This document shows positions 23,568 to 27,117 of a DNA stretch of 47,713 nt, one piece after another. Made by a program: the position numbers and the translations under genes. Below the pieces are notes generated by a model, which was given only the letters and a program-made list of their open reading frames with translations, made no database searches and was not told where the DNA came from. The first letter of the stretch is position 1; the number at the start of each line of letters is the position of its first letter. Source of the stretch: an uncultured Bacilli bacterium (lineage in GTDB: Bacteria > Bacillota_I > Bacilli_A > RF39 > UBA660); NCBI GenBank assembly GCA_944358725.1, contig CALVRS010000059.1, positions 1-47,713 on the forward strand, written 5' to 3'.

Positions 23568-23596
23568 TTGACAAGCGTTTTTGATACGCTTATAAT
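23568..23596 (+). promoter_or_regulatory. promoter with embedded palindromic operator (box 1)
   Basis: TTGACA (23568-23573), 17-nt spacer, TATAAT (23591-23596). The spacer is filled by AAGCGT-N7-ACGCTT (23573-23591). Confidence 0.7.
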
Positions 23597-23613
23597 GTAG
23601 GTGTGGTGATAAA

Positions 23614-24285
23614 ATGCAGTTAAATAATCCTTTATATAAAAATATTGGAATTCACGTGATATGTTCGATTTTTACAGTAGAAAAAGGTGTTGTAAAGGTT
23701 TTACTGATAAAGAGAAAAAATGAACCATACAAGGATAAGTGGGCTTTGGTTGGCGGTGGTCTTTATAATAATGAGACTATTGAGGAGGCTATGAACCGAG
23801 AAATTTATGAGAAAACGGGTCTTAAAAATGTGAAAATTTATTTTAGTAATATTGAAAGTACAGTTGATAGGTCACCACTAAAAAGGATGATTGCTATTAA
23901 TTTTATAGGAGTAATTGATAGCAAAAGGTCTATATTAAAGGATACGGAAAAAACGAGTAATTGTGATTGGTTTGAACTTGGAATGGCTAAGTGTTTGGCG
24001 TATGATCATGATAAAATATTAAATGAAGCTAGAAATAATTTGAAAAAGTTAATAGTTTCTTCAAATGTTTTAAAGGAGTTATTTCCTAATGGTTTTACTT
24101 TGCCTGAGTTACAAAGGACATATGAGACAATATTAGAAAGAAAATTGGATAGGAGAAATTTTAGAAAGAAGATAATTAATTTAGGATTAATTAAGGAGAC
24201 TAATAAAACAGAGGTTTTTGAAGGACGAAAGCCAGCTAAGAAATATGAGTTTAACAGTGTTGTTGAAGAGAAATCAATATTTTAA
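23614..24285 (+). CDS. NrtR-like regulator (Nudix domain plus C-terminal winged helix)
   Basis: Nudix box 'GGGLYNNETIEEAMNREIYEKTGL' with the second Glu of the EE pair replaced by Lys. C-terminal 'FTLPELQRTYETILERKLDRRNFRKKI' is typical of the NrtR wHTH. Confidence 0.8.
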   Translation: MQLNNPLYKNIGIHVICSIFTVEKGVVKVLLIKRKNEPYKDKWALVGGGLYNNETIEEAMNREIYEKTGLKNVKIYFSNIESTVDRSPLKRMIAINFIGVIDSKRSILKDTEKTSNCDWFELGMAKCLAYDHDKILNEARNNLKKLIVSSNVLKELFPNGFTLPELQRTYETILERKLDRRNFRKKIINLGLIKETNKTEVFEGRKPAKKYEFNSVVEEKSIF

Positions 24286-24315
24286 TGTATGCAAATACAT
24301 TTTTATATTAAAATA

Positions 24316-24336
24316 ACAAGCGTATTTGATACGCAT
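24316..24336 (+). promoter_or_regulatory. operator box 2 upstream of the kinase/radical-SAM/dcd operon
   Basis: ACAAGCGTaTTTGATACGCat matches box 1 (ACAAGCGTtTTTGATACGCtt) at 18 of 21 positions. It lies between a weak TTTAAT-17-TATATT promoter (24281-24309) and the GAGGAGG RBS. Confidence 0.6.
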
Positions 24337-24347
24337 GAGGAGGAAAT

Positions 24348-24890
24348 ATGAAAAATTTAATAGCGTTTATAGCGCCTAGTGGTTATGGTAAATCTACGGC
24401 AATTGAGATAATTAAAGAAAAATATGATATTTCAAATATAAAAATTGGAAAGCCATTATATGATTTACAGTATGAGTTTTATAAGAAGATTGGTAAAGAT
24501 ATTGGGAATGTTCAAGATGGGGAGTTATTACAATTTTTAGGTTATAAAGTTAGAAAGGAAAATCCTGATTATTTATTAAATGAATTTTATAATGAGCTTT
24601 GTTTTTGTGATAAAGAGATTATTACTAATGATGATTGCCGTCCAAATGATTATAAGTTTTTACAGGAATTAGGTTTTATTTTTATACGGATAAATGGATA
24701 TAAGAGAGATAGAGCTGATCATACGCAAATCAATTCTAAGTCGAAGTTAGAGTGGCAGGAAGAAATTTTGTGTGATTTTGAAATAGATAATTATGGCGAT
24801 TTAGATGAGTATAGAGAAAATGTTTTAAGGGTTATGGATGATGTTTTAGGTAAAAATAAAGTTAGAAAGAAGGTATTGTGTGTTAAATAA
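24348..24890 (+). CDS. P-loop kinase resembling phage (T5-type) dNMP kinases
   Basis: 'FIAPSGYGKST' Walker A. 'ITNDDCRPNDYKFL' and 'RADHTQINS' resemble the 'PDTRQ..E' and 'DTHITE' blocks of T5-type dNMP kinase, from memory of the family. Confidence 0.55.
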   Translation: MKNLIAFIAPSGYGKSTAIEIIKEKYDISNIKIGKPLYDLQYEFYKKIGKDIGNVQDGELLQFLGYKVRKENPDYLLNEFYNELCFCDKEIITNDDCRPNDYKFLQELGFIFIRINGYKRDRADHTQINSKSKLEWQEEILCDFEIDNYGDLDEYRENVLRVMDDVLGKNKVRKKVLCVK

Positions 24891-26076
24891 ATGTTATATT
24901 GTGCCTGTTCAAAAGGCTTGTAATTGTGATTGCATTTTTTGTATATCAAAGTCAAGAGATTATGATAAGGAAGATGAATTTTTAAAAGTGGATGATGAGT
25001 TTATAGAAAATATTAAGTTATTAAAAAGACGAGGAATTAAAAAAATTGAAATAACTGGTGGTGGTGAGCCTATGCTTCATCCAAATATTGAATTAATAGT
25101 AAGTATTATAAAGGAAATTATTTCTGATTGTTATATAAAGATATATACAAATGGTTTTATATTAAAGAAAGTTGAGGGAATTGATGAGGTTAATATTTCG
25201 CTAGTTAGTGATAATGATAGAGTAAATGATTATTTTATGAATCCAAAAAGTAATGTTTCATTTGCTGAAAGGATTGGCTATTATAGAGAAAGTTATCCAT
25301 TATCTAAACTTCGTCTTTCGATACCTTTGATGAAAGGAGGAATTGATAGTTTAGATAAGTTAAATGATTTAATTAATAGTACTTCTTGCTTTGTGGATGA
25401 ATATGTAGTAAGAACTTTATATCCACATTCATTAGTATATGAAAAGGATTATGTAGAATTTCCAATAGATAATGATAAGGTTATATATGAAAAAGATAAT
25501 GATGTTAGTGATTTTGATGGTTTAATATTATGGAGTGATAATCAATTTTATAAAGATTTTAATTTGAATTTAAAAAGATATTTATATGGGTATTTATTAT
25601 TGAAGCCTGATTCAGCAATTTATATAAATGAAATTGAGGAAATTATTAGAAAATTTGGTTTAGATGTTGTAAAAAAATATTTGATAAAAAATTTTGATGA
25701 AGTGGCTTTAGAATTTTATCAAGAGAAAGATGATGATTATAAGAAAGTTATTCAAAATCATGTTGATAATTTAGTATATTTATTTGGTAATGATGCTTTG
25801 ATTTATATTTTGGATGGTAATTATTGTTATCAAAAATTATTGGAAAAAGTTTATGATTTAAAGTTAGAAATTAGGAGGCAGTTAGGTTTTACGGAGAAGA
25901 AGCATGGCTATATTTTAAAAGATGGCAATATTTCGCATTTAAATTTATGTCATTGCCCTGATGCTATAAGTACTTTTTTTGAGCGTGATTTATCTAATAT
26001 TGATAGTTTTGATAAGACTTTACTTAGTGAAAATAATCAAAAGATTTTAAGAAAATATAGGAGTTATCATTTATGA
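24880..26076 (+). CDS. radical-SAM domain fused to a nucleoside-diphosphate-kinase-like domain
   Basis: GTG start overlaps the upstream stop. C14-x3-C18-x2-C21 ('CNCDCIFC') and 'ITGGGEPMLHP'. The C-terminal half (aa ~235-375) carries 'LLLKPD', 'EIIRKFGLDVV', 'ALEFYQEK', 'LEIRRQLG' and 'NLCHCPD' in NDK order, including the phospho-His position (H358). Confidence 0.7.
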   Translation: MLNKCYIVPVQKACNCDCIFCISKSRDYDKEDEFLKVDDEFIENIKLLKRRGIKKIEITGGGEPMLHPNIELIVSIIKEIISDCYIKIYTNGFILKKVEGIDEVNISLVSDNDRVNDYFMNPKSNVSFAERIGYYRESYPLSKLRLSIPLMKGGIDSLDKLNDLINSTSCFVDEYVVRTLYPHSLVYEKDYVEFPIDNDKVIYEKDNDVSDFDGLILWSDNQFYKDFNLNLKRYLYGYLLLKPDSAIYINEIEEIIRKFGLDVVKKYLIKNFDEVALEFYQEKDDDYKKVIQNHVDNLVYLFGNDALIYILDGNYCYQKLLEKVYDLKLEIRRQLGFTEKKHGYILKDGNISHLNLCHCPDAISTFFERDLSNIDSFDKTLLSENNQKILRKYRSYHL

Positions 26077-26618
26077 TATTATCGGGAAATAAGATAAAAG
26101 AGGAAGTAGAAAATGGCAATATAAATATTGAACCATTTTATGAGGATATGTTAAATCCTAATAGTTATAATTATCATTTGGGAGATACTATTTTAGAAAT
26201 AGAGGATGATGTAATAGATCCTTATGTTAAATGTAAGGTAAAGGAAGTGAAACTAACGGAAGATGGATATTTAATTAGACCAAATAAGTTATATTTAGCA
26301 AGTACTAAGGAGAAAATAGGTAGTAAGAAGTATGTTACGCAGTTAATTGGTCGAAGTTCAGTTGGCCGTCTTGGATTGTTTTTACAGGTTACAGCACCGC
26401 TTGGCCATGTTGGATGTAATCATTGTTGGACGCTTGAACTTAGAGTGGTTATGCCTCTTAGAATTTATCCTAATATGCGAATTGGTCAAGTTACTTTTTG
26501 GAAACTTTATGGCAAGCGTGATTTACTTTATGACAAGGGAAAATATAATAATTATTTGATTCCTCAAGTTAGTATGTTTTATGAAGAAGGTGTTTTAGAT
26601 GATATTATCGGGAAATAA
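26073..26618 (+). CDS. dCTP deaminase/dUTPase-fold protein, paralogue 1
   Basis: 'MILSGNKI...IEPF...NPNSYNYHLG' and 'GRSSVGRLGLF'. The catalytic-Glu position is kept ('WTLEL', E122). The 'IDxGFxG' block is replaced by 'GHVGCNHCW'. ATGA overlap with the upstream gene. Confidence 0.8.
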   Translation: MILSGNKIKEEVENGNINIEPFYEDMLNPNSYNYHLGDTILEIEDDVIDPYVKCKVKEVKLTEDGYLIRPNKLYLASTKEKIGSKKYVTQLIGRSSVGRLGLFLQVTAPLGHVGCNHCWTLELRVVMPLRIYPNMRIGQVTFWKLYGKRDLLYDKGKYNNYLIPQVSMFYEEGVLDDIIGK

Positions 26619-27117
26619 GATAAGAAATGAGGTAGAAAATGGTAGAATTGTAATAGAACCGTTTGATAGTAATATGCTGAATCCTAATAGTTATAATTAT
26701 GAACTGGGAGATTATTTAAAGGTATATGAAAGTGATATTCTTGATAGTAAGATTAAAAATAAAACGAGAATAATAAAAATACCGGATGAGGGTATTGTTT
26801 TAATGCCAAACAAATTATATTTGGGTTATACTAAAGAGGTAATTGGGAGTGATTATTTTGTACCTATTATAACTGGCCGAAGTTCTACAGGTCGTCTTGG
26901 GCTCTTTGTTCAAATTACTGCTGATTTGGTTGATATAGGATTTAAGGGAAATTTAACTATTCAATTTTGTGCGACTCAGCCAGTAAGGATATATAAGGGA
27001 ATGAAGATAGGACAGGTGTTTTTTCACAGAGTATATGGTGATGTTACTTTATATTCTGGTAAATATCAAAATTCTATTGGTCCAAGAGAATCGGAGAGTT
27101 GGAGAGATTTTTCATAA
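26599..27117 (+). CDS. dCTP deaminase/dUTPase-fold protein, paralogue 2 (catalytic Glu replaced by Gln)
   Basis: 'GRSSTGRLGLFVQITADLVDIGFKGNLTIQF'. The 'VDIGFKG' block is kept but position 122 is Q. The first 25 nt are identical to the start of paralogue 1. Confidence 0.8.
   Translation: MILSGNKIRNEVENGRIVIEPFDSNMLNPNSYNYELGDYLKVYESDILDSKIKNKTRIIKIPDEGIVLMPNKLYLGYTKEVIGSDYFVPIITGRSSTGRLGLFVQITADLVDIGFKGNLTIQFCATQPVRIYKGMKIGQVFFHRVYGDVTLYSGKYQNSIGPRESESWRDFS

Follow-up and report, generated by a model that had tools for sequence, protein, structure and literature searches.

A conserved radical-SAM, kinase and Dcd-type operon under an NrtR-like repressor in an uncultured Bacilli bacterium, with a probable role in pyrimidine DNA precursors

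A compact module around a radical-SAM protein

We identified a compact operon in a window of 47,713 nucleotides (the whole 47.7-kb stretch analysed; contig CALVRS010000059.1 of an uncultured Bacilli bacterium, lineage RF39, UBA660). The operon joins a radical S-adenosylmethionine (radical-SAM) protein to nucleotide kinases and to two proteins of the trimeric dCTP deaminase (Dcd) fold. Together with its relatives, it firmly supports a conserved functional module in which a radical-SAM protein is coupled to the cytosine-to-uracil deamination of a (deoxy)nucleotide, with dTMP-type or deoxynucleoside monophosphate (dNMP)-type kinases attached. It is also firmly supported that in this organism the module is repressed by an NrtR-type regulator. 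The likely task of the operon is to make or remodel a pyrimidine precursor of DNA. New beyond an earlier, sequence-only reading of this stretch are the complementary active-site losses of the two Dcd proteins, the wide spread of the core of the module in the Candidate Phyla Radiation (CPR) and the DPANN archaea, and the position of the first operator between a perfect -35 and -10. The features of the cassette are given below, with coordinates as positions of the whole window; L and P identifiers denote related loci and related proteins, respectively.

23568-23596, + strand: sigma-70-type promoter TTGACA-17-TATAAT for nrtR, matching 12/12 consensus positions
23571-23591: operator 1, ACAAGCGT-TTTTGAT-ACGCTT, palindrome with core GT-N7-AC, occupying the 17-nt promoter spacer
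23614-24285, + strand: nrtR-like repressor gene, 223 aa
24316-24336: operator 2, ACAAGCGT-ATTTGAT-ACGCAT, ending 2 nt before the kinase ribosome-binding site GAGGAGG
24348-24890, + strand: P-loop dNMP-kinase-like gene, 180 aa
24880-26076, + strand: gene for the fusion of the radical-SAM domain and a nucleoside diphosphate kinase (NDK)-like domain, 398 aa, two domains
24880-25575, + strand: radical-SAM domain of the fusion, aa 1-232, with C14x3C18x2C21, GGGEP and YTNG
25576-26076, + strand: NDK-like beta-alpha domain fused to the radical-SAM domain, aa 233-398
26073-26618, + strand: Dcd1 gene, 181 aa, trimeric Dcd fold
26599-27117, + strand: Dcd2 gene, 172 aa, trimeric Dcd fold

The four enzyme genes are, to judge from their stop/start overlaps, translationally coupled. 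The GTG start of the radical-SAM gene at 24880 precedes the TAA stop of the kinase gene (24888-24890), the radical-SAM and Dcd1 genes are joined by ATGA at 26073-26076, and the Dcd2 ATG at 26599 precedes the TAA stop of Dcd1 (26616-26618), with a purine-rich ribosome-binding site 7-10 nt 5' of every start. Direct reading of the sequence bears out the coordinates, the overlaps and the same-strand coupled operon that the sequence-only reading had proposed.

Two Dcd proteins with complementary active sites

Both Dcd proteins match the DCD fold (PF22769; 2e-33 for Dcd1 and 6e-37 for Dcd2) and they are 52% identical to each other. Alignment to 1ogh, 4xjc and 2qxx, with the bifunctional Dcd:dut enzymes of M. 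tuberculosis and M. jannaschii among the references, assigned their catalytic residues. Dcd1 keeps the deaminase Glu (WTLEL) and has His in place of the motif-III Asp (GHVGC); Dcd2 keeps the motif-III Asp (VDIGF) and has Gln in place of the deaminase Glu (LTIQF). This complementary His/Glu and Asp/Gln pattern is invariant in every orthologous pair, and the single DCDs of the CPR/DPANN modules keep both Asp and Glu. The Gln of Dcd2 matches the residue in the deposited M. jannaschii variant 3gf0, which we take to be the deamination-dead E145Q mutant. The counterpart of the motif-III Asp in Dut coordinates the catalytic water, and its replacement in the D83N mutant leaves practically no activity (PMC5519681). 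On the curated model TIGR02274, with a cutoff of 92.8, Dcd1 scores 91.8 and Dcd2 114.3.

The first eight residues of the two proteins, MILSGNKI, are identical (26073-26096 in Dcd1 and 26599-26622 in Dcd2). This shared start, together with the position of the Dcd2 start within the last Dcd1 codons, looks like the footprint of a tandem duplication.

A viperin- and MoaA-like radical-SAM domain fused to a divergent NDK

The radical-SAM domain matches PF04055 (Radical_SAM) at 3e-14, and C14, C18 and C21 are invariant in the family. In an AlphaFold2 model of the fusion protein (mean confidence, pLDDT, 94), the best Foldseek matches of the domain were the viperins 9dfw, 6q2p and 5vsl (E ~5e-11; target-normalised TM-score, TMt, 0.59-0.67), followed by MoaA. 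A sequence search of the PDB agrees, with viperins as the best matches (2e-6) and MoaA next. The domain nevertheless falls far below the cutoffs of the curated family models, scoring 34.8 bits vs 180 on the viperin equivalog NF038283 (no better than its MoaA match), 56.7 vs 284 on MoaA TIGR02666, 24.6 vs 131 on NrdG2 and 32.7 vs 260 on QueE. The sole defence-model match was PADLOC pVip, at 39 bits and 1.4e-10 for 'viperins associated with kinases', which is a weak match at superfamily level. Across the family, neither a Cys beyond CX3CX2C nor a second cluster motif is conserved, and there is neither a cobalamin nor a HemN-type domain.

Candidate assignments to known radical-SAM families were rejected. 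MoaA fails on the family threshold and on the Cys residues of a C-terminal second [4Fe-4S] cluster, which are not conserved. A glycyl-radical activase of the NrdG/PflA kind, as implied by the JGI label 'organic radical activating enzyme', and QueE were both rejected on family scores, cluster motif and neighbours, and neither a glycyl-radical enzyme nor queCD genes adjoin the radical-SAM gene in any locus examined. Because thresholds and defining features fail, the protein is not placed in the viperin, MoaA, QueE or NrdG-activase families. The sequence-only reading had named viperins, QueE and NrdG-type activases as possible relatives; by structure and profile, the domain groups with viperin and MoaA and not with NrdG or QueE.

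Several lines of evidence converge on the C-terminal half of the fusion. When its profile was compared with the PDB, the matches listed were mostly NDKs (best E 7.6e-5). A phage protein of NDK-like type was its Foldseek match in BFVD (TMt 0.69, E 5.5e-5), and this match and the beta-alpha pattern of the AlphaFold2 model agree with the ferredoxin-like fold of NDKs. An hhalign comparison with four NDK sequences (E 1.2e-4, probability 54%, 118 columns) placed K242, Y280, R332, N355, H358 and D370, all invariant in the domain, on K12, Y52, R105, N115, H118 and E129 of the NDKs, with the catalytic His in an NxxH motif; an equivalent of R88 was not seen in that alignment. The Pfam NDK model (PF00334) gives 16-20 bits in relatives, below its gathering score of 27, and no match to the fusion protein of the window. 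On these profile, hhalign, Foldseek and sub-threshold Pfam results, we regard the domain as NDK-like and divergent, with the phospho-His position kept. Stand-alone NDK-like proteins exist (P0253 and P0276), as do short radical-SAM forms that lack the domain; a separate NDK-like gene was sought in the loci with short forms and was not found there.

The kinase encoded upstream of the fusion matches the PHROGs family phrog_139 (dNMP kinase) over residues 1-175 at 4.5e-15. Its AlphaFold2 model (pLDDT 87) has the nucleoside monophosphate (NMP)-kinase fold in Foldseek, with the T4 dNMP kinase, 1dek_A, giving the highest query-normalised TM-score (TMq, 0.68), and PDB sequence and profile searches returned nothing beyond P-loop matches. 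The modelled P-loop NMP-kinase fold relates it to the T4 gene 1 dNMP kinase. The partner kinases of the Bacilli and phage-like loci likewise match T4 dNMP kinase, and that of the CPR/DPANN loci passes the gathering score of Pfam Thymidylate_kin (29 vs 27). The enzymes named in the sequence-only reading, which were a P-loop dNMP-kinase-like protein, a radical-SAM::NDK-like fusion with its catalytic His retained and two trimeric-Dcd-fold paralogues, were all recovered by these profile and structure comparisons.

A rare module shared by Bacilli, CPR bacteria and DPANN archaea

A search with the full-length fusion gave 111 matches among 5.8 billion sequences. They are named 'radical SAM protein' or carry a generic automatic label only, and wherever a source is given it is a Bacilli metagenome-assembled genome (MAG). 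An exhaustive phmmer search of 1.84 billion representative proteins found 23 matches at E≤1e-30 and 74 at E≤1e-10. Three architectures are present: the 398-aa form of the window, a kinase::radical-SAM::NDK-like triple fusion of 559-571 aa in which the kinase is joined to the N-terminus of the radical-SAM domain, and a radical-SAM-only form of ~238 aa. One 567-aa triple fusion (P0233) has the cluster motif CNCDYRFC, with the second cluster Cys replaced by Tyr; either the copy is inactive or the assembly is wrong there.

The complete NrtR–kinase–radical-SAM–DCD1–DCD2 cassette is kept in about 25 Bacilli-type loci. In most Bacilli-type loci a gene for a CobC-like histidine phosphatase comes next, and in some the cassette is followed by a gene for an AAA_28 protein, which had no PDB match; the window has neither gene. 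When 185,579 species genomes were scanned with a profile, about 13 MAGs proved to carry the Bacilli-type cassette, a scan of genome contigs with a single protein having given no match.

The profile scan also revealed a short core, mapped by local phmmer, in which a radical-SAM protein of 235-250 aa, 28-37% identical to that of the window, is directly followed by one DCD. Its hosts are Saccharibacteria, other Patescibacteria, Nanoarchaeota, Woesearchaeota and a Methanosarcinales bin, together with contigs of the order DCD–radical-SAM–dNMP kinase. With a dTMP-type or dNMP-type kinase, the radical-SAM–DCD core is known from CPR bacteria, DPANN archaea, a few Bacilli with reduced genomes and one phage-like contig. 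In CPR/DPANN loci a dTMP-type kinase gene lies 5' of the core, and nucleoside 2-deoxyribosyltransferase-like, AAA_28 or CYTH genes often adjoin. An NrtR gene precedes the core in two Patescibacteria, and the DPANN versions have a different regulator. The CPR/DPANN flanks are of housekeeping type, the DPANN loci lying among SerRS, RFC, PolB and topoisomerase genes. Between archaea and bacteria, the radical-SAM-linked DCDs are 75-80% identical and the kinases 54-56% (L043, L044 and L047), and this level of DCD identity suggests recent horizontal transfer of the module between domains. Further cross-domain loci are L038, L041, L045, L049-L053 and L056. In P0204 and P0293, which belong to separate clusters at the 50% level, the short radical-SAM protein is fused to a zinc dCMP/cytidine deaminase; with the DCD pairing, this means that two unrelated deaminase folds partner the radical-SAM protein.

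A phage-like version is found on L010, a marine 36-kb contig with many small open reading frames (ORFs), where DCD, radical-SAM and dNMP kinase genes stand in that order at 7452-9294. L010 also encodes an NAD-ligase, a Dam methylase, a dCMP deaminase and a GMP-reductase-like gene. A tblastn search of 50,697 cultured phages with the phage-like radical-SAM protein gave no match, and scans of IMG/VR returned generic radical-SAM proteins only, none with an adjacent DCD. L010, the only phage-like carrier found, therefore bears the link to phages, perhaps along with L039 and L048. Six Aenigmatarchaeota or unclassified archaeal contigs (L054, L055, L061, L064, L067 and L068) carry 5-9 tandem radical-SAM genes of ~360 aa, which are distant superfamily matches only and unrelated to the cassette.

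An NrtR-like repressor and its operators

The repressor combines a NUDIX domain (PF00293, 9e-14) with an NrtR_WHD winged helix (PF21906, 4.7e-20) in Pfam. It scores 117 bits on the NrtR equivalog NF050029, under the cutoff of 400, and its Nudix box, read from the translation, is degenerate (REIYEK). The window has exactly two copies of the box ACAAGCGTWTTTGATACGC, at 23571 and 24316, where none would be expected even at 3 mismatches (100 shuffles), and a looser consensus found no further intergenic copy across the window. NrtR operators are 21-bp palindromes with a GT-N7-AC core as their hallmark (Rodionov et al. 2008, PMC2330246), and both boxes carry this canonical core. The Nudix and winged-helix regulator and the 21-nt palindromic box in front of both units, as described in the sequence-only reading, are confirmed by Pfam and by the shuffles.

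The layout TTGACA-AGYGTA-N5-7-TACRC-TATAAT before nrtR is kept in 13 orthologous loci, and a second box stands before the kinase ribosome-binding site in most loci that have an nrtR–kinase spacer (L001, L003, L004, L007, L011, L024, L031 and L032). A strict GCGT...ACGC pattern misses most of the orthologous operators, and the degenerate consensus AGYGTA-N-TACRC was read from the promoters. As a phylogenetic footprint, the same promoter and operator layout across 13 loci supports autoregulation and repression of the operon. The promoter at 23568-23596 probably also serves the whole unit; operator 1 lies inside it, and the unit should therefore repress itself until a small-molecule ligand binds the Nudix domain. 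By its sequence, the repressor is NrtR-like in architecture and operator and not in regulon.

Transcription unit and genomic surroundings

The region 5' of the cassette contains the following features.

19736-21497: tRNA-Trp, the Fic gene and the ADP-ribosylglycohydrolase gene of an insert
19856-20413: Fic gene of the insert
20544-21497: ADP-ribosylglycohydrolase gene of the insert
21723-23519: thrS of the insert
23521-23559, + strand: putative terminator after the thrS stop, an AT-rich 15-bp hairpin with a flanking T-run

The hairpin folds with -12.9 kcal/mol (z -5.55; 0/200 shuffles equally stable) and is likely a terminator that isolates the cassette from thrS. A full-length T-box leader (21556-21741, + strand) lies 5' of thrS, with 77.6 bits and E 2.8e-17 on RF00230, where Rfam sets its gathering score at 93. 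Translation of thrS probably begins at ATG 21783 rather than at the GTG 21723 of the ORF list. With this hairpin and T-run behind thrS and thrS having its own T-box leader, the cassette is therefore a separate transcription unit.

The window and a 73%-identical relative, L003, share the 5' synteny Amidase_3–Abi_2–HtrA. The window has tRNA-Trp, Fic, ADP-ribosylglycohydrolase and thrS inserted between HtrA and the cassette; in L003 the cassette directly follows HtrA. Adjacency of nrtR and an ADP-ribosylglycohydrolase gene has been reported in Streptomyces (PMC2330246). No NrtR box was found before the glycohydrolase gene of the window. L010 has an ADP-ribosylglycohydrolase-like gene 3 kb from its DCD–radical-SAM pair. 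Further upstream in the window are genes for a Schlafen/AlbA_2–HATPase_c_4 protein (14821-16251) and an Abi_2 abortive-infection-like protein (17167-18114). On the 3' side, a convergent gene (27120-27572, - strand), 2 nt from the Dcd2 stop, encodes a 150-aa protein with two XRE-type helix-turn-helix domains that matches PADLOC capH at 3e-13, and next after it, at 27671-28240, is a gene for a small RCC1/beta-propeller-repeat protein with a signal-anchor. A phosphoketolase gene (XFP) lies a few genes 3' of the cassette in L003 (13307-15685) and L007 (5419-7743), whose radical-SAM proteins are only ~40% identical; either synteny has been kept here or there could be a connection with the pentose-phosphate pathway.

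A tentative route from dCTP to a modified deoxyuridine triphosphate

The route that we favour, if tentatively, would lead from dCTP to dUMP, then to a radical-SAM-modified dUMP and through two kinases to the triphosphate, with the order of reactions deduced from residues, fusions and gene content. Dcd1, with its Glu kept and the hydrolytic Asp lost, would deaminate dCTP to dUTP, and Dcd2, with its Asp kept and the Glu lost, would split dUTP into dUMP and pyrophosphate; in CPR/DPANN modules, one DCD with both residues would cover these two steps. The viperin/MoaA-like radical-SAM domain would then modify the deoxyuridine nucleotide by 5'-deoxyadenosyl-radical chemistry, and the simplest product that fits the partner kinases would be dTMP or another 5-substituted dUMP. 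The T4-type dNMP kinase would convert this product to the diphosphate, and the fused NDK-like domain, via His358, would convert the diphosphate to the triphosphate. We favour this order because it calls on every enzyme a single time, finds successive steps joined in the fusions, explains how a DCD with pyrophosphatase residues can be tolerated and agrees with kinases that match thymidylate-like substrates. The nucleoside 2-deoxyribosyltransferase-like genes and AAA_28 kinases beside the CPR/DPANN core also speak for a deoxynucleotide context. It is mirrored by the cd–td–gene 1 modules of phages. The order implied by the sequence-only reading, from NMP through NDP and NTP to a viperin-type product and then to Dcd, fits poorly with the DCD residues and with kinases of dTMP/dNMP rather than CMP/UMP type. 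The ancestral single DCD keeps deaminase and pyrophosphatase residues and would therefore degrade a triphosphate product to the monophosphate.

In the favoured route, the radical-SAM protein would fill the thymidylate synthase slot of the canonical dCTP-to-dTTP route. It is doubtful, on present evidence, that the protein is a folate-independent radical-SAM synthase of thymidylate type with dTMP specifically as its product, a framing that also covers a 5-substituted dUMP ending in DNA. Such a system might work as a channelled complex, from deaminase through dUTPase, radical-SAM protein and dTMP kinase to NDK. If true, thymidylate synthesis would have a third solution, unrelated to ThyA and ThyX, and this would travel as a mobile module among CPR bacteria, DPANN archaea and gut Bacilli that are poor in folate and have reduced genomes. 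A search for ThyA and ThyX found neither in 95 sequences (1.3 Mb), in which flanks of ≤10 kb make the result uninformative.

Several observations weigh against the favoured route. Viperin and MoaA, the nearest structural neighbours, abstract a ribose hydrogen of NTPs and do not alkylate bases. There is no extra conserved Cys and no cobalamin or HemN domain, and therefore the known mechanisms of radical methylation are not obviously available. The family is very rare and patchy (74 of 1.84e9 proteins) and looks more accessory or defensive than like core metabolism. Most Bacilli loci have a CobC-like histidine phosphatase after Dcd2, for which the route has no role. The radical-SAM-linked DCDs scored (window Dcd1, L043 and L010) fall below the dCTP-deaminase equivalog cutoff, with window Dcd2 as the exception, and the substrate may therefore not be plain dCTP. 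Finally, the minimal repertoire of Patescibacteria has been reported to include thymidylate synthesis already (PMC12455944), so that a replacement would not be needed.

Alternative roles

A viperin-like antiviral module is possible, although we consider it on the unlikely side. The kinase and the NDK-like domain would feed a (d)NTP to the radical-SAM protein, which would make a chain terminator of the 3'-deoxy-3',4'-didehydro type; the Dcds would deplete dCTP or convert or detoxify the product, and NrtR would derepress upon ADP-ribose or an infection-linked nucleotide. Viperins being the best matches in structure (E 5e-11, TMt 0.59-0.67) and PDB sequence (2e-6), and the pVip models the sole defence matches (1.4e-10), are consistent with this, as is the rare and patchy distribution with cross-domain transfer (DPANN/CPR DCDs 75-80% identical). 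Deamination of dCTP is a known antiphage strategy. However, the viperin equivalog score (34.8 bits vs 180) does not exceed that of the MoaA match, PADLOC has no model that matches the Dcd or kinase proteins, the partner kinases are of dTMP/dNMP and not CMP/UMP type, and a downstream DCD with both residue sets would turn a triphosphate terminator into a monophosphate. On the defence role raised in the sequence-only reading, the evidence neither supports nor refutes: the one defence-model match is the weak pVip match of 39 bits, some Bacilli loci have defence-type neighbours, with Abi_2, Schlafen/AlbA_2 and Fic genes ≤10 kb away in the window, Abi_2 in L003 and a restriction endonuclease gene in L005, and the DPANN flanks (SerRS, RFC, PolB and topoisomerase) are mostly housekeeping. 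That the module is essentially absent from cultured phages and IMG/VR has no bearing on the question of defence.

That the end product is a modified nucleoside or nucleotide in free form, such as an antimetabolite or a signalling molecule, seems improbable. A triphosphate would be formed, modified by the radical-SAM protein, deaminated and hydrolysed by Dcd1 and Dcd2, and then dephosphorylated by the CobC-like phosphatase, which is closest to alpha-ribazole phosphatase (106 bits) and whose gene (His_Phos_1) overlaps the Dcd2 stop in many loci. These steps are collinear with the gene order kinase, radical-SAM::NDK, Dcd1, Dcd2, His_Phos_1, and a variable set of accessory genes for phosphate handling (CYTH and AAA_28) is found nearby. 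Yet the window itself has neither the phosphatase nor the AAA_28 gene, the CPR and DPANN versions lack the phosphatase, and no transporter or tailoring genes are conserved beside the cassette. Collinearity also fits a ribonucleotide 2'-deoxygenation, which we hold to be very improbable, in which CMP would be raised to CTP, reduced to dCTP by the radical-SAM protein and converted by Dcd1 and Dcd2 to dUMP for thymidylate synthesis. MoaA and viperin do begin by abstracting a ribose hydrogen from NTPs, and all other genes of the module handle deoxynucleotides; against this, no Cys or other reductant-handling residues are conserved for a two-electron reduction, the kinases resemble dTMP/dNMP kinases rather than CMP kinases, a pyrimidine-only supply would not replace ribonucleotide reductase, and the radical-SAM::dCMP-deaminase fusions would not join consecutive steps. 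A housekeeping regulon of the classical NrtR kind, serving to salvage NAD or recycle ADP-ribose, is scarcely credible. It could appeal to the NrtR-type regulator and operator, to AAA_28 (a domain of the NadR-kinase family) in extended cassettes and to an ADP-ribosylglycohydrolase gene 2 kb upstream in the window and near the phage-like module. We rejected a role in NAD salvage, with no NAD enzyme and no shared operator: no enzyme of the operon belongs to an NAD pathway family in Pfam or the curated models, a consensus search of the window found no operator before the glycohydrolase gene, the only NCBIfam match of the AAA_28 protein is a weak one to dTMP kinase, and the DPANN versions have a different regulator.

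Significance and comparison with known systems

The gene combination is in none of Pfam, NCBIfam, PHROGs and PADLOC, where nothing beyond superfamily level was found, and full-text literature searches found no paper describing a radical-SAM and DCD module. The description of an undescribed system in the sequence-only reading is in keeping with these results. The central reaction has a real chance of being new in kind. With this module, the known radical-SAM reactions would gain one on pyrimidine deoxynucleotides, and it would define either a new route for making or altering DNA precursors or a new nucleotide-based antiviral chemistry. Its fusions (of the Rosetta-stone kind), split Dcd pair and compact five-gene size make it directly testable, and its occurrence in CPR/DPANN genomes bears on how ultra-small symbionts acquire dNTPs.

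Compared with viperin and pVip (CMPK2-type), the cassette shares a compact, single-cluster radical-SAM protein with a partial TIM-barrel fold and CX3CX2C, and a genomic coupling to nucleotide kinases that here even includes fusion. In contrast to viperin, its radical-SAM core is ~230 aa with an NDK-like domain in place of the C-terminal extension, a C-to-U deaminase always accompanies it, the kinases belong to the dTMP/dNMP type, and control is by NrtR. The antiphage dCTP deaminase, composed of a kinase-like domain and a zinc deaminase, likewise associates a P-loop kinase-like protein with a cytosine-nucleotide deaminase, and two relatives of the cassette carry a zinc deaminase fused to the radical-SAM protein; the window, however, has the trimeric Dcd fold, and the radical-SAM protein is the conserved centre of the module.

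The bifunctional Dcd:dut enzymes of M. jannaschii and M. tuberculosis share the fold and the motifs SSxGRLGL, motif-III Asp and TLEL Glu with the Dcd proteins, whereas the catalytic pair is not found in one chain of the window, with His/Glu in Dcd1 and Asp/Gln in Dcd2. Like classical NrtR regulons, whose effector is ADP-ribose (Rodionov et al. 2008, PMC2330246), the cassette has a regulator with Nudix and winged-helix domains, GT-N7-AC palindromes and a site in its own promoter, but its targets are kinase, radical-SAM and Dcd genes and not NAD, phosphoribosyl pyrophosphate or pentose genes, which extends the regulator family to deoxynucleotide metabolism. The canonical dCTP-to-dTTP route (Dcd or Dcd:dut, Dut, ThyA/ThyX, Tmk and Ndk), together with the cd-td-gene 1 set of T4, has homologues or analogues in the cassette of every step but thymidylate synthase, and the phage-like version resembles the T4 module in its order of DCD, radical-SAM and dNMP kinase. 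The cassette differs from that route in that the Dcd activities are apparently split over paralogues, a divergent NDK is fused to the radical-SAM protein and the kinase is often fused as well, and in the position of ThyA/ThyX, which it lacks, it has the radical-SAM protein.

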